A stretch of DNA of 64,000 nt from assembly GCA_964575605.1 (NCBI GenBank), contig CAZNRN010000012.1:2933-66932 (forward strand), read 5' to 3'. The notes under the pieces were generated by a model that saw only the letters and a program-made list of their open reading frames with translations, ran no database searches and was not told where the DNA came from. Both the position numbers and the translations under genes were made by a program. The DNA is from an uncultured Micavibrio sp. (GTDB taxonomy: Bacteria > Pseudomonadota > Alphaproteobacteria > Micavibrionales > UBA2020). Positions 4,675 through 26,241 of the stretch are shown here, in pieces. How positions within the stretch are numbered: the stretch's first letter is position 1; each line of letters starts with the position of its first letter.

Positions 4675-5898
4675 TCAGGCGCCGCTCGGGAATTCGCGGA
4701 AGATCAGGTCAACGGCTTCATCATCGTGTAATGCGCCCGTAATGCGGCCGATAGAGGCCTGGGCTGTCTCAAGCTCTAGTGAAGCGTTGACACCCTCGCC
4801 ACCCGCAAGTGCTTTATCCAGCGCAGCCACGGCGATTTCGAGTGCATCGCGATGGCGACGTCGCGTAATGACCGAGCCGGGGCGCGAGCGGAAAAGCGTC
4901 GCGACACGTTCTGTGAGCTTTTCGATGAAGGCGTCCATACCTTCGCCCGTCATGACCGAGATCGATTTCACTGAACCGCCGGGTTTACCGAGGTCTGACT
5001 TGGTAAAGACGCTGAGTGTCTTGTTATCGATCATTTTAAGCGTATCCGGGTCTTGCGCGGGTTTGGTGCCATCGAATAGCGCAAGCTTCAGGTCCGCCCT
5101 GTCAACTGGTGCGTCCGTCATGATGACGGGATAGCCGTCAAGATCCATGCGCACCTCGGTAATCTCGCCCAGGTGACCCACACGGCCAGTAACAGTTGCA
5201 ACGTCGCGCCTGACCAGCGCATGCATCAGGCTGGTCTTGCCAGCGCCAGCGCCCCCGATGAGCGAAATTATAATTCCCTTGTGCATTCGCTCGCCGCGGT
5301 GACCGTCGTTCATATGGTCGCGCAAGTCTTTTACCAGCAGCCGCAGGTCGTCTTGCAGCCCCGGCAAAAGGCCTTCCGAACCTGAGCTTTCCTGCCTTGC
5401 GTGCAACGACAAGACACTTTCGCGCCAGCTGTTATAAAGGCGGGACGCGTTACCCATCGCGACATCCAGCGCCTGCAGCCGCTGCAATTCTGTTTCCGCC
5501 ATCAAGAGGTCGAGTACGCCCTCGGCTTCGATAAGGTCAAATTTTCCGTTTTCAAACCCGCGGCGCGTGAATTCGCCGGGCAATGCGTGGCGGCAGCCGG
5601 GAACTTTCGAAATGGCCTGCAATACGCTTTCAACAGCCGCGCGGCCGCCATGCAACTGGAATTCGATGACATCATCACCGTTGTAACTGAATTCCTGCGG
5701 ATAATGGATGCAGATGATGGTATCCAGCATTTTGCCGCTTGAGGGGTCTGAGAGCATATGCACTTCCACATGCCGCGGCTCGATATGGTTTTTCCACGAC
5801 AGCGCCTTGAAAACCCCGACCGCGCCCGGGCCGGAAACGCGGATGACGGCGATGCCGCACCCGAATCCTCCCGAGGCAAGGCCGAAGATTGTATCCAT
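4675..5898 (-). CDS. mnmE: tRNA modification GTPase MnmE homolog with degenerate G-domain and C-terminal motifs
   Basis: N-terminal domain conserved (EFQLHGG, LPGEFTRRGFENGKFDLIEAEG) and RRRH present. G1 is GGAGAGKT, but G3 DTAG is replaced by TDAP, G2 GTTRD is absent, and the C-terminus is FPSGA instead of FCIGK. Start at MDTIFGLAS (5898), sharing one nt with the ferredoxin stop (TAATG). Confidence 0.8.
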   Translation of the reverse strand: MDTIFGLASGGFGCGIAVIRVSGPGAVGVFKALSWKNHIEPRHVEVHMLSDPSSGKMLDTIICIHYPQEFSYNGDDVIEFQLHGGRAAVESVLQAISKVPGCRHALPGEFTRRGFENGKFDLIEAEGVLDLLMAETELQRLQALDVAMGNASRLYNSWRESVLSLHARQESSGSEGLLPGLQDDLRLLVKDLRDHMNDGHRGERMHKGIIISLIGGAGAGKTSLMHALVRRDVATVTGRVGHLGEITEVRMDLDGYPVIMTDAPVDRADLKLALFDGTKPAQDPDTLKMIDNKTLSVFTKSDLGKPGGSVKSISVMTGEGMDAFIEKLTERVATLFRSRPGSVITRRRHRDALEIAVAALDKALAGGEGVNASLELETAQASIGRITGALHDDEAVDLIFREFPSGA

Positions 5899-6266
5899 TA
5901 GCTGCAAGCCGCTGGTTTTTGAGCTGGAGAAAGCTCGGTCTGTTCCTTTTTCAGCAGCAGGCGTTCGACACGCTCGCCCTTTTGCAGGTGCGTGGCGATA
6001 ATTTCCTCGATGTCTTCCTTGCTGGAATAGGTGTACCAGGTGCCTTCCGGGTAAATCACGAGCACTGGGCCAAGTGCGCAACGGTCAAGGCAACCCGCCG
6101 AGTTGACACGGGTGGAAGCAATGCCGAGTTCCTTGACACGCGCATTCATGTAGTTGCGCAATTCCAGCGCGCCTTCCGCCTTGCAGCTGCCCTTCGGGTT
6201 GTCGGGCGGACGCTCGTTTGTGCAGCAAAAGACATGGCGCTGAAAATATAAGTTTTCTTCTGTCAT
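5898..6266 (-). CDS. thioredoxin-like [2Fe-2S] ferredoxin
   Basis: 122 aa. Cys pattern FCC...C(x)nAGCLDRCALGPV with the PEGTWY motif, typical of (2Fe-2S) ferredoxin-domain proteins. Confidence 0.8.
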   Translation of the reverse strand: MTEENLYFQRHVFCCTNERPPDNPKGSCKAEGALELRNYMNARVKELGIASTRVNSAGCLDRCALGPVLVIYPEGTWYTYSSKEDIEEIIATHLQKGERVERLLLKKEQTELSPAQKPAACS

Positions 6267-6308
6267 GGTTTTTCTTCCCCTCTTTGGTTAGGGTAGACAA
6301 AAGGAAAA

Positions 6309-8384
6309 ATGGCGGCAAGCGATATGAATCTTCTGGCAAACGAAACCAGTCCCTACCTGCGCCAGCACAAGGATAACCCTGTGCACTGGCGCCCTTGGGG
6401 CAAGGAAACGCTCGAGGCTGCAAGGCGCGAGAATAAGCCTATCCTGCTGTCAATCGGTTACGCAGCCTGCCACTGGTGCCATGTGATGGCGCATGAAAGT
6501 TTCGAGGATGGCGAAACCGCGGACCTGATGAACCAGTATTTCGTGAACATCAAGGTCGACCGTGAGGAACGTCCTGATATCGACATGATCTTCCAGAACG
6601 CACTGGCGCTGATGGGCCAGCAAGGCGGCTGGCCGCTGACGATGTTCCTGACACCCGGGGGCGAACCCTTTTGGGGCGGCACCTATTTCCCGCCGCTTGC
6701 CCGCCATGGCCTGCCCGGGTTTCGCGAAGTGCTGCGCGGTGTCCATACCAGCTGGGAGCAAGAGCAGGACAAGATCAGCCACAACGTGAAAAGCCTTACC
6801 GCGGCTTTGCACAAAATGCAGGAGAAGCAAGGCGGCGAGATAGTCACACGCGATCAGCTGGACAAAATCGCGGCTTATTACTTGAGCATCACGGACCATG
6901 TCAACGGCGGTATTGGCGAAGCGCCGAAGTTTCCCTCGCTCACGATAACATCATTCCTTTGGGACAGTTACTTGCGCACGGGTGGCGCGCCGTTCAAGGC
7001 AGCTGTTATTCATGCGTTATCATCGATGGCGCAGGGGGGGATTTACGACCACATCGGCGGTGGGTTCTGCCGTTATTCCGTCGATGCCGAATGGCTGGTA
7101 CCGCATTTCGAAAAGATGCTCTACGATAACGCGCTTTTTGTGTCGCTGATGACAGAAGTCATCCGGGAAACGAAAAACCCTCTTTTTTCGGCACGGATAT
7201 ACGAAACAGTTGATTGGCTAAAACGCGACATGGCTGTCATGCATGCCGGGGAGACAGCTTTTGCCTCCAGCCTGGATGCCGACAGCCGGGGCTGTAACGG
7301 TCATCTTGAAGAGGGCGCTTACTACGTCTGGAGCCTGTCGGAAATCGAGCTGTTGCTGGGGAAAGATACCAAGCATTTCGCCGAAGCTTACGACATTACT
7401 GCGTCCGGGAACTGGGAGGGCAGGAATATCCCGAACCGCCTGCGCCGCCCGGGCCTGATGAAGCAAGACGAAGAAAAACAGCACGAAATGATGCGCCTTA
7501 AGTTGCGTGAACACCGCAACACACGCATCCCCCCCGCGCGTGACGATAAAGTGCTGGCGGACTGGAACGGGCTGATGATAGCGGCACTGGCAAAATCTTC
7601 TTTCGCCCTCGATGCGCCCGAACACCTGCACATGGCCAAAAGCGCCTTCGCGTTTATCACGAAAAACATGATGCAAGCCGACATGCGTCTCTGGCATGTT
7701 TTCTGCGATGGGAAGACAGCGCATGCCGCAACGTTGGACGACTACGCCAATATGTGCGAGGCGGCTTTGGCACTATTCGCAGTCACACGCGAACAGCAAT
7801 ACCTGGAGCAGGCGGAAGGCTGGGTCGAGATTGTCTTGAAGGACTACCGTGATGAAGCCAACGGTGGCTTTTATCTTTCGGCACCCGCACAAAAAGAGCT
7901 TCTGGTGCGTCCGAAAACTGCGGACGATACGGCAACCCCATCCGGAAATGGCACGATGGTATCCGTACTGGCACGCCTTTTCATGCTCACCGGGAAACAG
8001 ATATACTCCGCGCAGGCCTCGGAAGCAGCGCGTGCTTTTTCCGGTAACGTATTGCAACGTTTCTTCCCCCTTTCCACGCTCCTCTCGGCCAGTGATTTCC
8101 TCGAACATCCCGTCAGCCTGGTTCTGGCAGGCGACAGGGGCCGCGAGGAATTCGTCGAAGTGCTAAGAAATATCTCCTTCCCGCAACTAGTTGTCTTGGA
8201 AGCCTCCGCCAGCCTGCCGCCACATCATCCGGCCGCTGGCAAGGAAGCTCTGGGCGGACGTGCAACGGCCTACCTATGTCCCTACCGCGCCTGCCTGCCC
8301 CCGATTACGGAAGCTGCGGACCTGAAAAACACATTGTTAAATGAGCGCAGGCGCAACCTGCGTGGCGCTGCCAACGACAGCTAA
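6309..8384 (+). CDS. thioredoxin-domain protein, YyaL/DUF255 family
   Basis: N-terminus [25 protein letters not shown]...[17 protein letters not shown] is the family hallmark. 691 aa. AAGGA ribosome-binding site upstream. Confidence 0.9.
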
Positions 8385-12271: not shown

Positions 12272-12606
12272 TGTTGTGTTCTTTCTTTAGATGATGGGTC
12301 TGGAAATAGGGCGATAATTATTTGGATCGTCGCGGGGGTGATTGATTTTCTGTGCAGGCATCCGCTGAAAATGAACCGGCGGACGCGCCTCTTCGAATGA
12401 AGGCTTGATGATGAAAGTTAACAAGATTCCCGATGTATGTCAACTGCCACATTTTTCCGCGCAGGCTATTTGGAGCCGTATTTTGACGCCAAGAACTTGA
12501 TTCCGCCATATTTTGCAGGGACTTGGCTTGTCATATAATGGCATGGGGCAGGTTTCATGGTTTCTTAGCGGATGCTGCGCTAGGGTTGCTAAGGGGTGTT
12601 ACTGGC

Positions 12607-14220
12607 ATGACGATCGACGAACAAATAAAAGCGGACGCGGAGGGCGGGAGCCTTCCAGCCCTGATCGCTTGGACAAGGGCGCTATTACATGGCGGAAACC
12701 CTGAGCTCGAGAAAAAAGCGGATACGCTTTTGAAAGCGGCCGAAAAGGCCGAAGACAAGGTACTTTGCGCCATAGGAATGGCCTGTTTTGCGGGCGCGCC
12801 GCCCTTCGGCAAAGATGAAGCGGTTGGAAGGCTTTGGATCAAACAGGCCGAAGCGGCAGGCAGCGCGCTCGGGGCTGAGATACTGGGCGATTTTCATTTC
12901 GCCGAAAAAGATTACAAGGCAGCCGCCAACTTTTATTCGGCAGCTATCCATCGCGGCGCTGACGGCGCCGATGTTAAGTACGCACTGATGCGCATTTGCG
13001 GACTGGGCCTGCCGCGCAGTATCGCACGCGCGATTGACGACCTGCGTACCGCAGCTGCGAATAATGCGGAAGCCGCCGCACTATTGGCGAACGGTATTGT
13101 CCCACCAACCGTTGCAAAATTGTTCATGGGTGCGGCTTATAAAGAAGAAGCTGCGGTAACAGTTCCGGAGCTCGAGGAGCATTTCACCAAGGGGCGCATT
13201 TCGGCGGCATGGTTTAAAGAGACGCCCAAGCACGCGCCACAGGCCCCGCTAACCAAGGGTTCTGCCCAAGGCAGCGACGCGCCGATTCAGCAGGCGCCTC
13301 CCGTGATTCCCACACAATCCCCGGCAGCGGTGCATGACGCGCAGCCAGACCCCTTTGCAGTGCTGGATGGCCTGGTCGGGCTGACAAAGGTCAAAAAGGC
13401 CATGAAAAGCCTTTCCAGCCAAATGAAGTTTTTCGCCAAGCGAAAGGCCGCAGGCCTGCCCTACGAAAAACCAGCCACGCACTTTGTTTTCACGGGCAAC
13501 CCCGGCACAGGGAAAACAACAGTCGCGCGGATTCTGGGCGGCATCATGAAATCCGCCGGATACCTCGAAAAAGGCCACGTCGTTGAATGTTCGGCGCGTG
13601 ACCTGATCGGCGAGTGGGTCGGTACTACCGCGCCTAAAGTCGGGCGACAGGTGGAGGCTGCGATTGGCGGGGTACTATTTATCGACGAAGCCTATTCATT
13701 ACTGAATGCGGTAGGGGCAAGGGCGTCGTTTACCGACGAAGCGATTGCAACACTGTTAAAGCTGATGGAAGACCGGCGGCACGAGTTTGTGGTGGTGGCA
13801 GCAGGTTATCCGGACGAAATGATTGCTTTCGTGAATGCCAATCCCGGATTGAAGTCGCGCTTTTCGGAATTTATCGTTTTTGATGACTATCAAGGCATGG
13901 AGCTGGAACAGATATACCTGCGGATGGCTGAGCGAATGCAGTATAAGCTCGAGGAGCGTGCGAAAATACTTCTGAATGCCGTCATGAACGAGTCACCGAC
14001 ATCCTTTGCCGGCGAATTTTCTAACGGACGTTTTGTACGTAACCTTTTCGAAGACACAATCAAGTATATGGCTGGGCGCCTCGAACGGCTTGATCAGGGG
14101 CATAACACCCCTTCCGCACCACCGGCTATCGAGGAGTTGTCACTTATCCACGCCGAGGATATCCAGATGGCCTGGGACGAGGCGAAAGCAACGCCGCGCC
14201 AGGTATCGACAGCCCTCTAG
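12607..14220 (+). CDS. Sel1/TPR-like repeat N-domain fused to a CbxX/SpoVK-type AAA+ ATPase
   Basis: Start chosen at MTIDEQIK (12607). Walker A GNPGTGKTT (13495..13521), Walker B VLFIDEAYSL, then VVVAAGYPDEM. The N-terminal ~190 aa are helical Sel1-like repeats, followed by a P/Q/A linker. Confidence 0.8.
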   Translation: MTIDEQIKADAEGGSLPALIAWTRALLHGGNPELEKKADTLLKAAEKAEDKVLCAIGMACFAGAPPFGKDEAVGRLWIKQAEAAGSALGAEILGDFHFAEKDYKAAANFYSAAIHRGADGADVKYALMRICGLGLPRSIARAIDDLRTAAANNAEAAALLANGIVPPTVAKLFMGAAYKEEAAVTVPELEEHFTKGRISAAWFKETPKHAPQAPLTKGSAQGSDAPIQQAPPVIPTQSPAAVHDAQPDPFAVLDGLVGLTKVKKAMKSLSSQMKFFAKRKAAGLPYEKPATHFVFTGNPGTGKTTVARILGGIMKSAGYLEKGHVVECSARDLIGEWVGTTAPKVGRQVEAAIGGVLFIDEAYSLLNAVGARASFTDEAIATLLKLMEDRRHEFVVVAAGYPDEMIAFVNANPGLKSRFSEFIVFDDYQGMELEQIYLRMAERMQYKLEERAKILLNAVMNESPTSFAGEFSNGRFVRNLFEDTIKYMAGRLERLDQGHNTPSAPPAIEELSLIHAEDIQMAWDEAKATPRQVSTAL

Positions 14221-14657: not shown

Positions 14658-15692
14658 TTATCCCTCGCACGCGCAGCGCTTGAATTTTTCAGGGCATGAC
14701 CGGCCGCAGGGCTTTCCTGAAATCGCATCCTTCACCAATTTGGCAAGGCCGGCGATAAAAGCGGGATGTGTGCCCACAGTTTCCACCCTTGCGAAATAAG
14801 GCAGGCCCAACTGCTCTGCCTTATGCCTGTATTCCATCTCGATTTCAACCAGCGTCTCGACATGCTCCGAAACGAAGGCGTGCGGATAGATAACCACGCC
14901 TTTTCTGTCTGCGGCTGCCTGGGCAAGGGCTTCTTCGGTCGAGGGACCGATCCATTTCAACGGGCCGACACGACTTTGATAACAAATTTGCCAGTCCAAT
15001 CCGGGGATATTTAATTCCCTCACGATCGCTTCCGCTGTTTTCTCGCATTGGTATTGGTAAGGGTCGCCACCGATGACGATCTTTTCGGGCAGGCCATGGG
15101 CGGAAAATAGCAGACGAGTCCCGCCGGGCGCTTTTTCCAGCTGCTGCCGGATGTTTTCGGCGGAGGCCTTTATAAAACCGTCCTGCACGGGATAACAGCA
15201 GATTTTTGATACATTCGTTTCATCGCCCCATCTTGCGTGAAGCGCACCGTCATCTGCCTGTACATTGGTCCAGAAGTCCTGGAACGATGAACCCGTGGTA
15301 GTGGTCGAGAACTGTGGGTAAAGCGGCAATAGCACGAGATGGTCGGGTTTTAGGTCATTAAGTTTTCCGATGACTTCTTTTGACAATGGGTACCAATAGC
15401 GCATGGAGACGAGCACTTCGGCGTCCATTCCCCGGCCGCGCAGTTCTGTTTGCAGGGCTTCGGCCTGTTTACGCGTGTTTTCGAGCAACGGCGATTTAAA
15501 GCCGAGTTTTTCGTAGGCGGCCCTTGCTGCGGCCTTGCTGCGCGTACGTGAAATGTAATGAGCTATAAACCATCTGATCGGCAGGGGCGCGCCAATGATG
15601 TTTTTATCCATGAAGAAGTTGTAAAGGAACGGCCTGATATCGGCTTCCTGCGAAGGACCACCCAAATTCATCAGGACAACGGCAGTTTTCAC
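14658..15692 (-). CDS. hemH: ferrochelatase
   Basis: MKTAVVLMNLGGP..., LLPLYPQFSTTTTGS and SAHGLP motifs. 344 aa. Confidence 0.9.
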   Translation of the reverse strand: MKTAVVLMNLGGPSQEADIRPFLYNFFMDKNIIGAPLPIRWFIAHYISRTRSKAAARAAYEKLGFKSPLLENTRKQAEALQTELRGRGMDAEVLVSMRYWYPLSKEVIGKLNDLKPDHLVLLPLYPQFSTTTTGSSFQDFWTNVQADDGALHARWGDETNVSKICCYPVQDGFIKASAENIRQQLEKAPGGTRLLFSAHGLPEKIVIGGDPYQYQCEKTAEAIVRELNIPGLDWQICYQSRVGPLKWIGPSTEEALAQAAADRKGVVIYPHAFVSEHVETLVEIEMEYRHKAEQLGLPYFARVETVGTHPAFIAGLAKLVKDAISGKPCGRSCPEKFKRCACEG

Positions 15693-16696
15693 CGGCGGAA
15701 TTCCCTGATGATTGTCGACAGTTGCGCAACATGCTCGGGCGGAGTGTCTTTGATGACACCATGCCCGAGATTGAAAATAAAAGGACGCTTGGCAACAGCA
15801 TTGAGGATGCGCAGCGCGCCATCCCGCATTTCCTGACCCCCTTTCAGCAACAGCGCTGGGTCAAGGTTTCCCTGCAGGCAGAACTTCGGCGGGAAAATAT
15901 CGAATGAAGCGGACTGGTCAAGGCCTAGGGCATCAACACCAGTTTCTTCGGCGTAGCGCTTGTAAAAGGGGCCGACTACGGCGCGGGGAAAGCCAATAAT
16001 AGGGATATCTGGGTTTGTCGACTTGAGCTTGCGCACAATTTCACGAGTGGGCGCAATCGACCATTCGACAAACTGCTGGCGGTTCAGCAAATTGGCCCAG
16101 CTGTCGAACAGCTGGATTGCCTGTACCCCGTTCGCAATCTGGCCGCGCAGGTATTGCACCGTCGCGTCGGTAATGACGGCGAGCAAGTCCTTGAACTTAT
16201 CCGGCTGTACTTCGGCGAATTGCCTGGCGACAGGAAAATCATTGCCACCCTGCCCTTGCACCATGTAACAGGCAACAGTCCATGGAGAACCAGCAAAGCC
16301 TATCAGCGCTTTTTCAGGGCCAAGATTTTTACGTATGCGTCGAACAGTGTCATAAACCGGCTCCAGCCTGCTTTCGTTCATTTTAAGCGAGGCGATGCGA
16401 AGAGCGCCAAGCCGCGGACCTTCACCTTCCATGAAATCGAGCTGCTGTCCCAAAGCATGCGGGACAACAAGGATGTCGGAAAACAAGATAGCCGCATCCA
16501 TATCGAAACGCCGGATCGGCTGTAAGGTTACTTCACAGGCAAGTTCAGGGTTGAAACAGAGGTTAAGGAAGGATCCGGCGTTTTTACGCAGGTCACGATA
16601 TTCCGGCAGATAACGCCCTGCCTGGCGCATAAACCAGAACGGTACCTGCGGTGTTATCTCCCCGTGGAGAGCTGCGATGATGGCTGGCTTGGTCAT
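15689..16696 (-). CDS. hemE: uroporphyrinogen decarboxylase
   Basis: PFWFMRQAGRYLPEYR signature near the N-terminus. 335 aa. 4-nt overlap with hemH. Confidence 0.92.
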   Translation of the reverse strand: MTKPAIIAALHGEITPQVPFWFMRQAGRYLPEYRDLRKNAGSFLNLCFNPELACEVTLQPIRRFDMDAAILFSDILVVPHALGQQLDFMEGEGPRLGALRIASLKMNESRLEPVYDTVRRIRKNLGPEKALIGFAGSPWTVACYMVQGQGGNDFPVARQFAEVQPDKFKDLLAVITDATVQYLRGQIANGVQAIQLFDSWANLLNRQQFVEWSIAPTREIVRKLKSTNPDIPIIGFPRAVVGPFYKRYAEETGVDALGLDQSASFDIFPPKFCLQGNLDPALLLKGGQEMRDGALRILNAVAKRPFIFNLGHGVIKDTPPEHVAQLSTIIREFRR

Positions 16697-16794
16697 GATG
16701 CCCTTGTTTACCGGAATCTAAAGTGCCAGTTTTTACCCTTAAAATATATAAGTATTAGAATCTTTTAGTAGGAGTCTGTAGGACGGTGCAAGGC

Positions 16795-16803
16795 GGGGAT
16801 AAT
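16795..16803 (-). promoter_or_regulatory. DnaA-box-like 9-mer (ATTATCCCC on minus strand)
   Basis: The plus strand reads GGGGATAAT. Contains the TTATCC core of the TTATCCACA consensus. Confidence 0.5.
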
Positions 16804-16913
16804 CCGGGATTCACATTTTTCCCCCTTACCTGCAGTCGCCGCGCTGTCCCGTATCGTGGAAAAAGATGCCGGATATAGTCGTTCACCACGCAGATTCAAT
16901 AATTTACCAAATT

Positions 16914-16922
16914 TGTGAATAA
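16914..16922 (-). promoter_or_regulatory. DnaA-box-like 9-mer (TTATTCACA on minus strand)
   Basis: The plus strand reads TGTGAATAA, one mismatch to TGTGGATAA (the E. coli R-box complement). Confidence 0.55.
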
Positions 16923-16953
16923 CCTTGATAACTTGTGATTCCGTAAACATCAG

Positions 16954-16962
16954 TTATCCCCG
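16954..16962 (+). promoter_or_regulatory. DnaA-box-like 9-mer TTATCCCCG
   Basis: Direct read. Shares TTATCC with the consensus. Confidence 0.5.
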
Positions 16963-17023
16963 TTATTCTATTCCGGAGTCTGCCTGCGTATTCTTCCTGC
17001 AAGGCTTTCGCAGGACACGTCAT

Positions 17024-17032
17024 TTATCCCGC
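17024..17032 (+). promoter_or_regulatory. DnaA-box-like 9-mer TTATCCCGC
   Basis: Part of the 10-mer TTTATCCCGC, which is repeated exactly at 17064. Confidence 0.5.
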
Positions 17033-17064
17033 AGGGAAACTTCTCCCGTCTTTTATGCACTAGT

Positions 17065-17073
17065 TTATCCCGC
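17065..17073 (+). promoter_or_regulatory. DnaA-box-like 9-mer TTATCCCGC
   Basis: Exact repeat of the 17024 box, 12 bp upstream of the next box. Confidence 0.5.
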
Positions 17074-17076
17074 GAA

Positions 17077-17085
17077 TTATCCCCA
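17077..17085 (+). promoter_or_regulatory. DnaA-box-like 9-mer TTATCCCCA
   Basis: Direct read. Matches TTATCCACA at 8 of 9 positions. Confidence 0.55.
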
Positions 17086-17169
17086 GAACCATGCATAATC
17101 AAGCTTCCATGCCCCGATTTTTCCCGATAGGATAAATCGGTTCAGGCAAGGGGTTTAAAAGGCTGCGAT

Positions 17170-17778
17170 ATGGCGGAAGACTGGCAAAAACTTGATGCGG
17201 AAAAATCCGCGCGTATCCTGTCGGAGGTTAATCCCCATCTGGAGCCTGTGCCGTTCAGCGTCGAACATACTACGATCCGTGCTCAACGCCTGCCTTTTTA
17301 TAAAAGTTATGAACTTTTCGAACTGACGGATCTTTCTGCTGTACCCGCCGCGCGCAAATACGCGCTTTACAAGCCGGGCGACATCAACGTCATCAACTGG
17401 ACGAACCAGACGATATACGAGACAAACGAGAAAGCGCCGATCAGCCTCGACGAGCGCAATGTCGTGGACTACGTGAAATTTTTCTTCAACTATGTGCGCG
17501 GGCGCCATGGCCGTTTCCTCATCATCGAGACGATCGATGACATCCGCTGGCAGGTAGAACCGCCGCTACAAGGCCGCAAGGTCATGCAGGAAATGCTTGT
17601 GCCCGTCGGGGTTGTCAGCCAGGACGCTGATGGAACGTTCAACCTTGAAGCCTTCATGGTTTTCAAGGACAGCCTTTTCAAGACCAAGATCCACGTCAAA
17701 AAAGACGGGCTGGTCAGCATGTCCGACGAAGAACTTAAAATCGAAGGCATGCCAGTCCTTCAGGACGCCGCGGCCTGA
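17170..17778 (+). CDS. hypothetical protein (202 aa), first gene right of the putative origin
   Basis: Clean ORF with genome-typical codon usage and an AAAGG ribosome-binding site. No family recognised. No signal peptide or TM segment. Confidence 0.7.
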   Translation: MAEDWQKLDAEKSARILSEVNPHLEPVPFSVEHTTIRAQRLPFYKSYELFELTDLSAVPAARKYALYKPGDINVINWTNQTIYETNEKAPISLDERNVVDYVKFFFNYVRGRHGRFLIIETIDDIRWQVEPPLQGRKVMQEMLVPVGVVSQDADGTFNLEAFMVFKDSLFKTKIHVKKDGLVSMSDEELKIEGMPVLQDAAA

Positions 17779-17782
17779 TCCC

Positions 17783-18820
17783 ATGCTGCCGCTGATTGCC
17801 GAACCAGACGCACGCGAAAAAAAACCCGAACCCTCCGACTTGCCGCCGGCTATCCAGCGCCAGATCGAAAAGCTTGTCGGCGCCAAGGTAACGGGCTCAG
17901 TTGCTGCCTTCGGCGGATTGTCAGTATCTGCGGGCTTTATCTTCACTTTTGACAACGGTCAAAAAATTTTCGCCAAGGGAGCCCACCCGGGCGACACGGC
18001 GCATGGCACCAAGAACCTCGGGCAAGAGGTGATGGTTTACGAGAGCCTCCCTGTGCTATCGCAAATATCCCCGCCCTATCTCGGGATTGTATCGGATGGC
18101 GAGGAAGACGGCTGGATGCTCGGTCTTTGGCGTTGTATCGATCATGACCCCAAACTGGCGACGCCAGCGCGTGTCTATGAGTCGCTGAAATCCTGGCAGC
18201 GCCATACTCCTGCGAAAGATATCCTGCCGCACGCGCGCGAGCACAATTACATTTCCCAGTTCCTCACACCCGAAAAAAAGTGGATACGTTTACGCAACGA
18301 CCAGCTGGCAAAACAGAAATTCGTATCGATGTTCGTTGATGCCAAGGAAGGACTTGCATGGTTCGACAAGCATGTGCCTTCCATCTGCCAGTATCAGGCG
18401 CGTATCGACAAGCTCAAAGGCGAAGAAGGTCTGATGCACGGCGACCTGCGCCTTGATAATTTTTTGTTTGGCCCCGACCGCACATATGTTGTCGACTGGC
18501 CTAATTCCTGCTGGGGGCCGCTGGTTTTTGATCTATCGTTCCTGTTTTCGAACATGGAGGCCTTGGGTTTTGGCTCGGCTGAAGACCATTTCCTTGCTTA
18601 TGCCATGGCGGGTGGCGTTGAAATCCCTCCTGATGATTATGTTGCGATGATGGCCGCCCTGTCGGGCCATTTTGCCGATCAGGCCTATCGCGAGGTGCCA
18701 GACAAGATGCCCCGTCTCCGCTGGATGCAGAAGTCGATGTTGCTTGCACAACTTAAGTTCTTGGCACGATTAGGGATAATCGAATCGCCGCCCCTTATGC
18801 AGGGGCAAAATCAACAATAA
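17783..18820 (+). CDS. APH/choline-kinase-like phosphotransferase (protein-kinase-like fold)
   Basis: ATG at 17783, 4 nt after the upstream stop. Catalytic loop HGDLRLDN (18437..18460), followed by VVDWPNS (the metal-binding Asp) and an upstream IFAKG Lys. The ORF-track start at 17597 overlaps the upstream gene and is rejected. Confidence 0.75.
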   Translation: MLPLIAEPDAREKKPEPSDLPPAIQRQIEKLVGAKVTGSVAAFGGLSVSAGFIFTFDNGQKIFAKGAHPGDTAHGTKNLGQEVMVYESLPVLSQISPPYLGIVSDGEEDGWMLGLWRCIDHDPKLATPARVYESLKSWQRHTPAKDILPHAREHNYISQFLTPEKKWIRLRNDQLAKQKFVSMFVDAKEGLAWFDKHVPSICQYQARIDKLKGEEGLMHGDLRLDNFLFGPDRTYVVDWPNSCWGPLVFDLSFLFSNMEALGFGSAEDHFLAYAMAGGVEIPPDDYVAMMAALSGHFADQAYREVPDKMPRLRWMQKSMLLAQLKFLARLGIIESPPLMQGQNQQ

Positions 18821-19092
18821 TCGGTCCTAAAAGTCCGATTTTCAGCTAGATTATTGTTTTCCTGTGGTTATTTTGCTCTGAAAACCACATTTTAGTTTAC
18901 GTAATCTAATAATATTCCTGCTTTTCTTATTTGGAAAAGGGGTTGTTAACCATCTTGGCCGCATGATGGTGGTGAAGAGGGAAATAGCTGCCTGCTTGCA
19001 GGGGCTGGAAAAGTGAAGAGTTCCGGCTTCTGGCCTTAAGGACCCCCAAGGGTCGGCAGGGCAAAAAAGAAACGAAAAAAACAGGGTGTGAA

Positions 19093-20124
19093 ATGGCTAA
19101 GGACATCGACTTCGATAGCGAGTCCCAAATTAAGAAGCCCGATACGCGGGGCTTTAAAAATACCTCGCGCCGCCTGCGCGAAGGCCAGCAAAAGCCGCTC
19201 AGCCACCGAGCGAGCCTTGACTGGCGCCTGGACCAGCGCACCGTGTGCGATAAGAATGGTCATAGCGCCGAAATCGTTCCCATCGCCGAGCTGAAAGAAA
19301 CTCTGTTGAAGAGCCGCACTGCCGAAGCGCTGTTCGAACAGGCCGGCAACCTCGAGATTGTTTACGACATGCAAAGCGCATCTTCGCAATATTATTGCCG
19401 CGAAGGCTGGCGCGTGATCACGTTGAACCCGCTGCGTCCGAAAGGCGACCTCATCAACCTGCTCGCGAAAGAACTTCGCCGCGACTGGCAATATTGCCAT
19501 GGCGCGCTGGTCAACCCGCTGGGCTACGAACCCGACGAAGCGATCCTTGTCAACCGCGCGCAAAGCGCCGATGTGCTGATGATCGCTGTCAAAATCGCCT
19601 GGGAACTGAAACTGGCCGGCGAAAACGAAGCCTGGGATTTTCTCGCGGCCACGCCGTCGGGAGATGTCACCCGCACTTACGAGCTGAAGGCGCAGGCAGA
19701 TTTCCGCACCCTGAACAACGGTGAAGCGGCGCGCGCGGCCTACGACAAGTTTTTCGAAGACAGCCGTACGAAACTGCATGACAAGCGCCTGATCCATCAG
19801 ATGCTGCTGGATGAAAGCGGCTATATGAAGGCAGGCTCGAAGCGCCCGAAGGTGACCATGGAGCTGTTCCAGCGCCTGGGCGAAGTCCCCGGCGGCCGCA
19901 ATTACCTGTCGATGCAGGCAAAACATGTACCGACCGACATGTGCTACGCAACCGTGGAAGACCGCTCTAACGCGAACTTCCTCTGGTTCATCAAGTTCGA
20001 ACGCAGCTTCCAGGAAAAGGAACTGCAGATGGTTAAAGAATCCGTGAAGCTGTCTGCCGAGGTCGTCGACTTCCGCAAATACTCCACGGGCAAGCGCGCC
20101 CGGCCGTCAGAGCTGGGCCAATAA
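19093..20124 (+). CDS. hypothetical protein, family member P1 with degenerate metal motif (KELRR ... SAD)
   Basis: 343 aa. Aligns by eye along its full length with 20176..21066, 31304..32188 and 53262..54350. KELRR at 19468..19482 sits where the paralogs have HELRH. Shares GGRNYLS with P2. Confidence 0.75.
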   Translation: MAKDIDFDSESQIKKPDTRGFKNTSRRLREGQQKPLSHRASLDWRLDQRTVCDKNGHSAEIVPIAELKETLLKSRTAEALFEQAGNLEIVYDMQSASSQYYCREGWRVITLNPLRPKGDLINLLAKELRRDWQYCHGALVNPLGYEPDEAILVNRAQSADVLMIAVKIAWELKLAGENEAWDFLAATPSGDVTRTYELKAQADFRTLNNGEAARAAYDKFFEDSRTKLHDKRLIHQMLLDESGYMKAGSKRPKVTMELFQRLGEVPGGRNYLSMQAKHVPTDMCYATVEDRSNANFLWFIKFERSFQEKELQMVKESVKLSAEVVDFRKYSTGKRARPSELGQ

Positions 20125-20175
20125 TTTCCGCTGTTCCGCCTCCCGCGGGATTGCCCGGATTTCGGAGGACTAGGA

Positions 20176-21066
20176 ATGCTGGAGCCGTTCTGCGACCGGC
20201 GCATAAAATTCTCCCTCGAGTCGTTGCTGGATCGCGACGCCTATATCGTCCCTGCTGAAAAACGCGCTTCGGCTTTTGCGGGCTATGTCCGAAGCCTTGC
20301 CGCCATAACGTCGCAAAGCTCGCTGGGAAGCGCCTTGTTGCGCGCAGCTGTGCTCCAGGGTGTATCTGTCGGGCTTGACCCCTTGCTTGAGCCCAATTCA
20401 AGTTATTTCTATCCGCAGCAAAACCATTTTGACTTAGGCTTTCAGCCCGACCTGCTGCAAAAGAGCGAAAAAGGCGTCAGCCAGTACCTCGTTTCTTTTG
20501 TCGGCGGTTTGCGCCGTGCGTGGCTTTTGCACAAGGGCCATGCGCCGGATGTTTCGCTTCGTCCCGACGACTTCTTGAAATTCTGCCGCTGTGCGGAAGC
20601 GGATGCAGGAGCTGTAACTCAGCTGGTCGCCTGGGAATTGCGCTCGGCGAATGCCGGTTTCATGTGGCGGCATTTGCTGTCAGGCCCGGACGGGGATATG
20701 TCGGTTATATTTGAACGCGCCATCATGGAAGGGCTGCAGAGCCAGTTTGACGGACTGGCGTTGAAGGCCGCTTTCAACCAATGGTTCGCTGACCGTGAAA
20801 GGATTGCGCTTTGTGATCACACGGCGCTTGAACTTATCGATATGTCGTTGATGCAGTTTGGCGGTCCGCCGCATGTCGGGGTCCGCAGCTTGAAACTCTC
20901 ATCCCTGCAGTCACTGGGTTCGTTGCCCAACGGACGCAACTATTTGTCCGGCTGCCTCTTCATGGGCGGCTGGTATAATATGATTGAGGACGAGTTTAAT
21001 CGTACGCATCTACGCCACATAGAACGGGATATTGCGCAACTTATTGAAAAACAACATAATATTTAA
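20176..21066 (+). CDS. hypothetical protein, family member P2 with degenerate metal motif (GGLRR ... EAD)
   Basis: 296 aa with a GGAGGA ribosome-binding site. GGLRR at 20503..20517. Shares AWEL, NGRNYLS and the C-terminal helix with P1. Confidence 0.75.
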   Translation: MLEPFCDRRIKFSLESLLDRDAYIVPAEKRASAFAGYVRSLAAITSQSSLGSALLRAAVLQGVSVGLDPLLEPNSSYFYPQQNHFDLGFQPDLLQKSEKGVSQYLVSFVGGLRRAWLLHKGHAPDVSLRPDDFLKFCRCAEADAGAVTQLVAWELRSANAGFMWRHLLSGPDGDMSVIFERAIMEGLQSQFDGLALKAAFNQWFADRERIALCDHTALELIDMSLMQFGGPPHVGVRSLKLSSLQSLGSLPNGRNYLSGCLFMGGWYNMIEDEFNRTHLRHIERDIAQLIEKQHNI

Positions 21067-21098
21067 GCGCTATCCTGGCATCTTTAAAATCATAATAT

Positions 21099-21132
21099 TT
21101 GACATAATCTAAGAATCGCGATATCTTCTTAG
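21099..21132 (+). promoter_or_regulatory. sigma70-like promoter (TTGACA-17-TATCTT) overlapped by a 24-bp inverted repeat
   Basis: TTGACA at 21099..21104 and TATCTT at 21122..21127, 17 bp apart. Inverted repeat CTAAGAA(N10)TTCTTAG at 21109..21132. Confidence 0.4.
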
Positions 21133-21172
21133 CCGAAACACGTTATAAAATTTTGGCATAGAGGAATTCATC

Positions 21173-21376
21173 ATGGCTGAAGTCGCATCCGGACCCCAAA
21201 ACGAAATTTTCGCGCCTGCAAAAGCGTCGCTGTGCAAGCAGGCATTCCAATGGGCGGGCGCTGCCGCCTCCGTCATCTGTGCGGAGCCGCCGCAGCAAGG
21301 CTTTGAAGCCGCCGGAAATGCTTACGACTATGTTGCAACGAAAGCTAAATTGGCGCTGAACCCGCCGAAGCGCTAA
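21173..21376 (+). CDS. possible small protein (67 aa)
   Basis: AGAGGA ribosome-binding site 7 nt upstream of the ATG, a promoter-like element upstream, and codon usage resembling its neighbours. No homology recognised. Confidence 0.4.
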   Translation: MAEVASGPQNEIFAPAKASLCKQAFQWAGAAASVICAEPPQQGFEAAGNAYDYVATKAKLALNPPKR

Positions 21377-21377
21377 A

Positions 21378-22151
21378 TCAGAAACCTTGAAGGTCGAGGA
21401 GGTGGGCTTCACCGCGCTTGGTGAGCCACTCCTTGGCCATCATGAGCGCGCGGTCTTTTTCACGGCGCGTCAGGTTTGAATAAACGTTATCACGGTCCGC
21501 CTCTGCGCGGACCTTTTCGTTTCCTTCAGGATAGTAAACGATCGCAAGGTGCAGCCACATCAGCGCGACGATCGCGTCCGAAGGCACCCCTTCGCCAAGG
21601 TAGTACATGACGCCTACGTGGTGCTGTGCCAGCGGGCGGCCGGACTCTGCAGCCTTGAGCAGGAAAGTCATCGCCTTTGCAGGGTCTTTCGGTACGCCCT
21701 GGCCTTGACGGTACATGATGCCCATGATCTCTTGCGCGCCCGGGTGGCCGCCATCGGCCAGCATCTTCATGCTTTTCGCGATGACGTCATATTTTTTCTG
21801 CTGATAGTATTTCATCAGCATTTCGTAGTTCAGCTTTCCTTTGCCTTCGCGAATTGCGCTTTCGGCTGTAGCTTCGTCAGGAGCGGCCTCGGCGGGATCC
21901 AGCACGGGTATAAGAAGGCCCGTCCTGAGGTTGTTGTATTCTTCAACGGGCGGCGGCTTATCCGGATTTTTCTCGACGTAGATTTCAGTGCTGTCTGAAT
22001 TGAAAGTGTTGAACTCGTCACCGTCCGTGCCACCGGTGGCCTTAGTTCCGGCACGCTCGTCGAGAGGGTTATCCTCGGCTGCCTTGATAGTGATGGGCTG
22101 AAATGCGAGCCCGGCGATGACAGCAGCGGCAAGAATTGAACGCAAACGCAT
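21378..22151 (-). CDS. secreted Sel1-repeat (SLR) protein
   Basis: Signal peptide MRLRSILAAAVIAGLAFQPITIKA. Repeats of the GxxxAQxxLGxMYxxGxGVPxD type. Confidence 0.85.
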   Translation of the reverse strand: MRLRSILAAAVIAGLAFQPITIKAAEDNPLDERAGTKATGGTDGDEFNTFNSDSTEIYVEKNPDKPPPVEEYNNLRTGLLIPVLDPAEAAPDEATAESAIREGKGKLNYEMLMKYYQQKKYDVIAKSMKMLADGGHPGAQEIMGIMYRQGQGVPKDPAKAMTFLLKAAESGRPLAQHHVGVMYYLGEGVPSDAIVALMWLHLAIVYYPEGNEKVRAEADRDNVYSNLTRREKDRALMMAKEWLTKRGEAHLLDLQGF

Positions 22152-25566: not shown

Positions 25567-26031
25567 ATGAAGGCTTCTACCAAAGTTGCGGCAGGCGCGG
25601 GCGCGCTGGCAGCAGGTATCGGTATTGCTTGCGCATTTCTTTGCCCGCTCGCGGGTCTTGCGGCTGGTGCTTACTTCACTTACGGCGCAGTTGCTGCGAC
25701 CATGGGCACGGCGGCAACCGTCGCATTGACGGCAGCTGGCGCAGTTGGCGGCATGCTGGTCGGCCGCATTGCAGCGCCAATAGTGGCGATTGCCAGTATC
25801 GGCCTAGGCGCTGCTGTGGGCCTGGGTGTCAAAGCGATCGGTTCGGGCATCGAAAAAATCCGTGGCGAAAAAACTGGTGCGCCTGCACAGAAATTCATGT
25901 CGCTTGAAACAACCTCGTTCAATCTGGTCTCTACCCTGAAATCTGCTTTCAGCAGGGCACAGCAGCCGAAGGCTGAAATCACAAAGCCTGTCCCGCGGTT
26001 GGAAATGGTGCCCAAGACGCCCAGCCTCTAA
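25567..26031 (+). CDS. Gly/Ala-rich small membrane protein (154 aa)
   Basis: GGAGG ribosome-binding site. The N-terminal ~100 aa are almost entirely G/A/V/I/L/T (2-3 predicted helices) and the tail is hydrophilic. A strong terminator follows. Confidence 0.7.
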   Translation: MKASTKVAAGAGALAAGIGIACAFLCPLAGLAAGAYFTYGAVAATMGTAATVALTAAGAVGGMLVGRIAAPIVAIASIGLGAAVGLGVKAIGSGIEKIRGEKTGAPAQKFMSLETTSFNLVSTLKSAFSRAQQPKAEITKPVPRLEMVPKTPSL

Positions 26032-26056
26032 CGACTAAGAATAGTATAGGAATAGC

Positions 26057-26088
26057 GAAAACCGCGCCTTGCAACGGCGCGGTTTTTT
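26057..26088. terminator. bidirectional rho-independent terminator
   Basis: AAAA-CCGCGCC-TTGCAAC-GGCGCGG-TTTTTT, a 7-bp GC stem flanked by an A-run and a T-run, lying between convergent genes. Confidence 0.75.
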
Positions 26089-26241
26089 GTTGACATTGTC
26101 AGCTTTAATGGCGATGTATTGGAAAGCCGAAATTGCCTTCTGGCATACGGTGCCTCGTTTTCCCAATGAATCTCAAGGTAATAAAATTTCAGGCGCCCTA
26201 TATGTGGGTGTTTTCCAATACACGTGGATTAATCGGGAGGG

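Follow-up and report, generated by a model that had tools for sequence, protein, structure and literature searches.

The hemE gene cluster is the main guide to locating chromosomal origins of replication in Alphaproteobacteria. The origin of Caulobacter and that of Rickettsia are flanked by hemE and by a gene of the COG1806/DUF299 family (CC0001/RP001), and Anaplasmataceae carry a variant with a different right boundary gene, hemE - COG1253 (PMC1914354). For Micavibrio aeruginosavorus ARL-13 the numbering of the genome begins at hemE, and clear transitions of the skew are reported by the authors of that genome (PMC3189940). In this work we have analyzed the right flank of hemE in a stretch of 64,000 nucleotides (the window) from an uncultured Micavibrio sp. 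(assembly GCA_964575605.1, contig CAZNRN010000012.1, positions 2,933 to 66,932). Five co-oriented genes lie there beside a spacer rich in DnaA-box-like sites: p202, a gene for a kinase-fold protein, two genes of the DUF6782 family (DUF6782a and DUF6782b) and the small gene p67. Of the known patterns, the conserved alphaproteobacterial origin gene cluster comes nearest, and this locus is a variant of it in which the right boundary differs. Tentatively, and with somewhat less than even confidence, we read the genes as a lineage-specific right boundary of the origin region in Micavibrio-like predators, inherited vertically and made up of two to three transcription units, and not as a mobile or defence island.

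The likeness to the described origin clusters comprises hemE as the left boundary, a spacer of more than 300 bp that is AT-richer and rich in DnaA boxes and, in distant relatives, the flank DUF299-maf-aroE-coaE-dnaQ-secB. Unlike the arrangement in Caulobacter and Rickettsia, the right boundary is p202, followed by DUF6782a and DUF6782b, and DUF299 comes only after DUF6782b in the distant relatives. From the flank in the window DUF299 is absent, and genes for Sel1, PrmA and thiolase proteins stand there instead. A further difference from the Caulobacter origin (Cori) is that the spacer in the window holds no full CtrA box (TTAA-N7-TTAA was found nowhere at 16000-22000 and once in the whole window); the origin here is a putative one, predicted from its sequence. 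The elements of the locus are as follows.

15689..16696, minus strand: hemE, uroporphyrinogen decarboxylase (open reading frame and Pfam URO-D match), left boundary of the putative origin
16697..17169: putative oriC spacer of 473 bp, GC 0.448, with DnaA-box-like sites
17170..17778, plus strand: p202, 202 amino acids, acidic, predicted to be cytoplasmic; right boundary gene, no family match
17783..18820, plus strand: phosphotransferase of APH/choline-kinase fold, 345 amino acids (Pfam APH, E 2.9e-12)
18821..19092: spacer 5′ of DUF6782a, 272 bp, GC 0.434, with conserved blocks including TTAACCAT
19093..20124, plus strand: DUF6782a, 343 amino acids (PF20573, E 8.5e-28), KELRR replacing HExxH, basic disordered N-terminus
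20176..21066, plus strand: DUF6782b, 296 amino acids (PF20573, E 1.3e-17), starting 51 nt 3′ of DUF6782a
21067..21172: spacer 5′ of p67, 106 bp, GC 0.340, with a promoter-like site at 21099-21127
21173..21376, plus strand: p67, 67 amino acids, an intact open reading frame in the closest relatives only; no family match

A first-pass annotation of the window had described four to five co-oriented genes of native codon usage and no assignable function, set among AT-richer spacers. All of this agrees with the present data: five open reading frames (ORFs) are present on the plus strand right of hemE and the DnaA-box-rich spacer, the GC of the three spacers compares with 0.566 for the window, and nothing beyond a fold class could be assigned, p202 and p67 having no family match. 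The GC content of the cluster genes, overall and at third codon positions (GC3), equals that of the neighbouring genes, which does not point to a recent transfer; the cluster genes are native and vertically inherited. The immediate left neighbours of the cluster are hemH and hemE. None of the five proteins contains a hydrophobic segment or a signal peptide, so all five are probably cytoplasmic, and no secretion genes adjoin the cluster. A scan of the cluster region against Rfam gave no match, and a promoter and terminator scan of the same region gave nothing above chance.

The putative origin spacer and the conserved gene order

The hemE boundary, an AT-richer intergenic region of more than 300 bp and a cluster of DnaA boxes were all found at this locus. 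The spacer contains the following sites.

16744-16752: AT-rich ATATATAAG
16796: GGGATAA, DnaA-box-like
16914: TGTGAATAA
16954, 17024, 17065 and 17077: TTATCCC, DnaA-box-like

Four of the seven TTATCCC heptamers of the window thus fall between 16954 and 17083. The equivalent spacer measures 256-623 bp in 58 species (320-620 bp in most) and is about 10 GC points below its locus; in most of these species the DnaA-box core TTATCC is about 10-fold enriched in it. Other motifs recur in the same spacers, namely TTATCCCCG in 34 of the 58 species, TTATCCACA in 30 and the AT-rich ATATATAAG in 26. From these features we infer, with good support, that the hemE-p202 spacer is a putative chromosomal origin, and the placement of the cluster beside a putative oriC by the first-pass annotation agrees with this. 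The cumulative GC skew counts against it in so far as it shows no clear turning point over 64 kb, a scale that is uninformative. The promoter of p202 must lie within the 473-bp spacer.

Two further sequences of the spacers are not DnaA boxes. The pair ATTCCGGAG/GACTCCGGAAT, at 16967-16980 of the window, recurs in the putative origin spacer of 16-19 of the 58 species, and ATCCTATCG is found in the hemE-p202 spacer of 16 of the 58 (both surveyed in the hemE-p202 spacers of loci L003-L066).

Gene order was compared in 64 species-level genome loci anchored on p202, in 80 metagenome loci anchored on DUF6782a and in five further contigs with very divergent members. Identical copies of the protein sequences were also found on a metagenome contig of 100 kb. 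Most of the comparison genomes are metagenome-assembled, and taxonomic names have been taken from record titles. The named relatives of p202, among hundreds of close relatives overall, belong to Micavibrio sp., unclassified Alphaproteobacteria, Rhodospirillales or 'Bdellovibrionales', the last label reflecting the placement of Micavibrio by NCBI.

The gene hemE is divergent from p202 and within 1.2 kb of it in 52 of 55 informative species. Among the 50 genomes with at least 5 kb of downstream sequence, 44 carry at least one DUF6782 gene 3′ of p202 and 38 carry two; reciprocally, p202 was found upstream of DUF6782a, on the same strand and at a distance of 0.2-4.2 kb, in 39 of 41 informative metagenome contigs. 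The five contigs with very divergent members retain the arrangement. In M. aeruginosavorus ARL-13 the orthologues are found at the end of the chromosome, adjoining GMV_1. In the distant half of the relatives the order is hemE, spacer, p202, DUF6782a, DUF6782b, DUF299, maf, aroE, coaE, (GATase), dnaQ, secB, fxsA, tim44. Because the canonical alphaproteobacterial flank directly follows the trio of p202, DUF6782a and DUF6782b there, the trio is a lineage-specific insertion, placed between this flank and the putative origin. In the subclade of the window this flank has been replaced by genes for Sel1, PrmA, thiolase and adenosine deaminase, and the trio, joined by the kinase gene, has kept its position despite the rearrangement.

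The first-pass annotation had noted unusual genes where housekeeping genes are expected, which fits the DUF299, maf, aroE, coaE, dnaQ and secB genes that follow the trio in distant relatives, and it had proposed to look for conservation of the cluster as a block. The core of p202 and DUF6782a/b is indeed kept across an order-level clade. As a cluster of four to five genes it holds in part: the core is kept in most genomes, the kinase gene occurs in 27 of the 50 informative ones (neither the distant clade nor one of the subclades of the closer clade has it), and p67 is confined to the closest relatives.

Three deviating arrangements were observed. In four loci of one sublineage (L038, L040, L041 and L043) rho comes next after p202 and the kinase gene, and the downstream sequence available, 2.9 to 10 kb per contig, contained no DUF6782 gene. 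In one metagenome contig (L144:8019-16776) an inverted block made up of hemE, the spacer and p202 is located 5 kb downstream of DUF6782a-DUF6782b-DUF299. The sole informative contig with neither p202 nor hemE upstream of DUF6782a is L108:5631-8978, in which a neighbouring minus-strand ORF (5631-6503, 290 amino acids) has an intact HEVEH motif.

The p202 protein and the adjoining kinase

No sequence match to p202 was found in Pfam, NCBIfam, PADLOC, PHROGs or the PDB (for the PDB by both single-sequence and profile searches), and a Pfam scan of 17 diverse members of its family likewise gave no match. Its AlphaFold2 model is of good quality, with a predicted local distance difference test score (pLDDT) of 82.9 and a predicted template modelling score (pTM) of 0.79; Foldseek searches with the model returned no fold match in the PDB or BFVD. 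The protein is acidic (isoelectric point, pI, 5.2) and has no recognisable DNA-binding domain or hydrophobic segment. The locus is under strong purifying selection, single-copy and fixed in position across the order: in the closer clade the median identity to the protein of the window is 82% for p202, compared with 80% for GidA, 74% for thiolase, 60% for hemH and 56% for hemE.

Searching 1.84 billion cluster representatives exhaustively with HMMER gave 1344 relatives of p202. The traceable standalone ones, of about 204 amino acids, are all in the hemE context. Others include multidomain proteins in which a domain of about 170 amino acids (p202 residues ~30-190) is present in one to four copies, with E-values of 1e-24 to 1e-32 for the fusions. 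The domain is C-terminal in giant TPR proteins, e.g. of Methylomusa anaerophila; it stands twice, N-terminally, in AAA + peptidase M41 (FtsH-like) proteins; it follows caspase and Sel1 repeats, or nSTAND1 and ankyrin repeats; and it is also found after a Ser/Thr protein kinase and after a VirD4-type type IV coupling ATPase (fusion proteins P0208, P0234, P0260, P0258/P0392, P0220/P0270/P0255 and P0122 among the HMMER matches). By the libraries searched, p202 is a standalone copy of a widespread, undescribed alpha/beta domain. The positions of the domain in the fusions are those at which such proteins carry target or ligand recognition modules. In this it resembles the C-terminal sensor domains of STAND nucleoside triphosphatases (NTPases), following as it does arrays of ankyrin, TPR or Sel1 repeats; it differs from them in that p202 is a protein by itself, very conserved and with a fixed place beside the putative origin.

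The residues invariant throughout the family are few and mostly structural (N86, Y101, G114, W127 and G180), and therefore a role of p202 as an enzyme is disfavoured. Since the domain sits at the recognition end of multidomain proteins, we infer by analogy that p202 may be a cytoplasmic recognition or adaptor protein for a conserved cellular partner. As an undescribed right boundary gene it can be used as a marker of the origin and of the clade, and it offers a handle on a family of 1344 representative clusters without a Pfam or NCBIfam family, PDB sequence or fold match. This domain family deserves a study of its own, and the small, soluble, highly conserved standalone protein is the easiest route to the binding partner of the domain.

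For the kinase gene the mechanical ORF list gave a TTG start at 17597. The start used by gene callers and by orthologues is the ATG at 17783, which follows the p202 stop codon (TGA) by four bases and yields a product of 345 amino acids; the kinase is probably translationally coupled to p202. The Pfam APH match (PF01636, E 2.9e-12) scores 47.3 bits, the cut-off being 23.2. Invariant in 21 orthologues are the catalytic loop H219-G-D221-L-R-x-D225-N226, the pair D238-W239 with the metal-binding Asp, and K65, by its position the presumed ATP-binding Lys. A C-terminal PRLRW motif, also invariant in the 21 orthologues, is specific to this group. A single-sequence search found no relative in the PDB; the profile search gave APH(9) spectinomycin kinase (3i0o, 8.7e-8, residues 124-259 only), LicA-type choline kinase (4r77) and YihE (1zyl) as the nearest.

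The kinase is thus like the APH, choline kinase and YihE (SrkA) proteins of PF01636 in its above-threshold match and invariant catalytic residues, and unlike the named equivalogs (aminoglycoside-resistance kinases, MTR kinase, LxmK and others) in having its own PRLRW motif and no equivalog-level NCBIfam match (the best score 17-21 bits against cut-offs of 228-315). It is a new member of a known superfamily and, judged by its residues, probably active, a catalytically intact but divergent enzyme of APH/choline-kinase type. The gene probably joined p202 during the history of the clade.

The DUF6782 pair, its upstream spacer and p67

Against Pfam PF20573 (DUF6782, 'putative metallopeptidase family'; cut-off 27 bits) the product of DUF6782a scores 97.7 bits and that of DUF6782b 64.3 bits, over profile positions 26-240 of 241. 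They share 31% identity over 150 amino acids (E 1e-12) and are both present across the clade; by sequence they are old paralogues. At the helix expected to carry the active site DUF6782a reads K126-E-L-R-R130 and DUF6782b reads GGLRR, the Glu being lost too in the latter. In the orthologues the states are (R/K)ELRR for DUF6782a and GLRR or ALRD for DUF6782b. The HExxH motif was found at this helix in none of 91 DUF6782a/b orthologues, and only three of them (L015, L037 and L055) keep a single His, at one or the other of the positions expected for the two. The first-pass annotation had taken the pair for catalytically dead members of a peptidase family, and the motif states point the same way.

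The AlphaFold2 model of DUF6782a shows three strands followed by a long helix, with a pLDDT of about 80 in the core and an overall mean of 61. Its best Foldseek matches in the PDB are all zincins (SPRTN 6mdw, MATCAP, M61, IrrE/PprI and PrpR) with weak statistics: for SPRTN the probability is 1.00 and the root-mean-square deviation 3.1 over 84 columns, with a weak E of 0.16. An E-value of this order, from a model with that mean pLDDT, counts against the zincin assignment. DUF6782a resembles zincins of the SprT/SPRTN type, ImmA/IrrE and the IrrE-like ligand-binding domain of Mycobacterium tuberculosis PrpR in its three-stranded sheet followed by a long helix at the active-site position. PrpR is a non-proteolytic derivative of a zincin. 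The difference from zincins is that in DUF6782a both zinc-binding His residues are replaced by Arg/Lys and that DUF6782b has lost the Glu as well. We read the motif as lost because of the Pfam name, the fold matches and the residual His residues; most likely, as far as the model can be trusted, both are non-proteolytic binding proteins with a zincin-like core from which the metal site has gone. DUF6782 is a catalogued family of unknown function, found here without the metallopeptidase motif. No PDB sequence matched its profile, a tblastn search for it on plasmids gave no match, no HExxH-bearing outgroup was found, and no mention of the family was found in the literature.

Rates of change were compared by correlating distance matrices after regressing out housekeeping divergence. 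The residual correlation between DUF6782a and DUF6782b was r = 0.83, compared with 0.07-0.55 for controls, and by this covariation the two proteins probably interact with each other. The pair offers what looks like a clean case of a protease fold turned apparently non-catalytic, in two co-evolving proteins.

A segment of about 22 residues near the C-terminus of DUF6782a (DRSNANFLWFIKFERSFQEKE, residues 289-310, window 19957-20022) is near-invariant from the closest to the most distant orthologues, which are 38-92% identical overall. AlphaFold confidence is low there. The segment is likely to be an interaction motif.

In the spacer 5′ of DUF6782a, the sequence TTAACCAT (18946-18953, plus strand) has an invariant TTAACC core amid poorly conserved sequence in an alignment of 11 species, and it corresponds to the published ungapped CtrA motif (PMC6180460). 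The form TTAACC(A/T)(T/C) was found in about 30 of 36 species of the closer clade, about 75-280 nt (mostly 95-200) 5′ of DUF6782a, with the same placement whether the upstream gene is the kinase gene or p202. In the closer clade DUF6782a/b are probably transcribed from their own promoter, and the conserved CtrA-type element suggests cell-cycle-timed expression of the pair. CtrA control is predicted because the element is conserved across species and not because of its counts, which tell against it: TTAACCAT is no rarer than expected by chance, 19 of 100 shuffles of the window containing at least two. The near absence of the element from the distant clade counts against it too. Further conserved blocks in this spacer (18846-18885 and 18905-18975) are GATTAT-N-TTCTGTGGTT, TTTCCGTAAT and CATGATGAAGGTG.

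The 67-amino-acid protein regarded as possible in the first-pass annotation proved to be a real gene: 11 species have it as an intact ORF of 62-72 amino acids, with identities of 42-91% and with the motifs EKPS..K.AFQ and GNAYDY conserved. No family match to p67 was found in Pfam, NCBIfam, PADLOC or PHROGs. The promoter-like TTGACA-17-TATCTT 5′ of it (21099-21127) is a consensus match only.

Explanations of the neighbourhood and adjoining features

Taken as a lineage-specific right boundary, the locus could work as follows. The first unit would be p202, joined in one subclade by the kinase; p202 would bind a conserved cellular partner as a recognition or adaptor protein, and the catalytically intact APH-fold kinase would phosphorylate this partner or a small molecule tied to it. 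DUF6782a and DUF6782b would form the second unit as non-proteolytic binding proteins acting as a pair, expressed in the closer clade from their own CtrA-type promoter at a set time of the cell cycle. The small protein p67 would be the third.

Several observations weigh against such an arrangement of connected units. Of 50 informative genomes, 23 lack the kinase gene, and in 6 no DUF6782 gene was found near p202. Heterogeneous, unrelated genes have been inserted between p202 and DUF6782a in several lineages, DUF6782a probably has a promoter of its own, and in L144 p202 keeps the company of hemE and the spacer, not of DUF6782. The order of origin-proximal genes is conserved for unrelated genes too, as in the canonical flank, and the rates of p202 correlate with those of the DUF6782 proteins (0.50-0.59) no more strongly than with the best control (0.55, hemE). 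The single undescribed functional module proposed by the first-pass annotation was accordingly not demonstrated, given at least two units, variable gene content and p202-DUF6782 covariation within the range of controls. What stands is a neighbourhood, conserved and composed of two to three units, between which functional coupling is plausible; kinases and proteases, the fold classes of the neighbours of p202 here, are among the proteins to which its domain is fused elsewhere.

Many of the same data would be met if the genes were functionally unrelated and stood together merely through the stable gene order around alphaproteobacterial origins. This we consider rather unlikely, yet it is the rival that survives best. 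The canonical flank, composed of unrelated housekeeping genes, shows synteny of its own in the distant clade, there are insertions and losses between the units, DUF6782a appears to have its own promoter element, and the rate covariation of p202 with DUF6782 does not rise above controls. It accounts less readily for the fact that p202, the kinase and DUF6782a/b stayed together where the canonical flank was rearranged away, for the reciprocal association (39/41 and 44/50), and for the p202-domain fusions with proteins of the same fold classes (kinases, proteases) as the neighbours.

A more ambitious proposal, which we hold to be unlikely, would make p202 the representative of a new class of target-recognition domains, which it would share with caspases, STAND NTPases, FtsH-like proteases, Ser/Thr kinases and VirD4 coupling proteins. 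In Micavibrio-like predators the standalone copy would then be an essential origin-linked adaptor that forms one regulatory module with a dedicated kinase and the co-evolving pseudo-zincin pair, its dosage and timing tied to initiation and CtrA.

It has also to be considered whether p202, possibly with its neighbours, acts on replication initiation or cell-cycle control at the origin, its position providing coupling in cis or by dosage. The near-invariance of hemE, spacer and p202, which the inversion in L144 moved together, would suit this, as would the very high conservation of p202, a p202 promoter that must be inside the DnaA-box spacer and the CtrA-type element 5′ of DUF6782a. Set against an acidic p202 (pI 5.2) with no recognisable DNA-binding domain, domain relatives that sit in proteins unrelated to replication and the lack of a full CtrA site (TTAA-N7-TTAA) in the spacer of the window, the idea appears improbable.

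A conflict or defence system of the STAND/caspase type, in which a kinase and protease-like effectors would accompany a sensor domain, is brought to mind by the p202 domain in nSTAND1-ankyrin, caspase-Sel1 and giant TPR proteins typical of such systems, and is very improbable for a single-copy, fixed, vertically inherited locus under strong purifying selection across the order, with no NTPase or active effector domain and with protease-like proteins devoid of the catalytic motif. None of the five proteins matched PADLOC profiles (E <=0.1) or PHROGs profiles (E <=0.01), and because no PADLOC match was obtained the cluster is no known defence system. A role as predation factors, secreted or injected and peculiar to the Micavibrio lifestyle, would fit the finding, among the searches made, of standalone p202 and of the DUF6782 family only in Micavibrio-like genomes, and there is little to commend it when all five proteins lack signal peptides and hydrophobic segments, no secretion genes adjoin and p202 is conserved far above expectation for a prey-facing protein. 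The cluster does not yet explain predation or cell-cycle control, and its value lies in the leads it opens.

Some neighbouring features were also recorded. The antisense ORF 19036-19926 (minus strand, 296 amino acids) was rejected as a gene, being in relatives merely a shadow of DUF6782a; shadow ORFs of this sort overlap other genes as well and recur since the sense genes are conserved. The intergenic region 26029-26119, 5′ of gidA, gave sub-threshold Rfam matches to RefA9, STnc420 and isrJ (best E 0.025), probably chance matches to a hairpin. The AAA+ ATPase gene at 12523-14220 (plus strand) was rejected as a member of the cluster, being found in only 3 related loci. It lies just left of the hemH-hemE block and encodes a 565-amino-acid protein with a repeat-like N-terminal half and a SpoVK/CbbX/EccA-type AAA+ module, which matches TIGR02881 with E 1.8e-73, under the equivalog cut-off.

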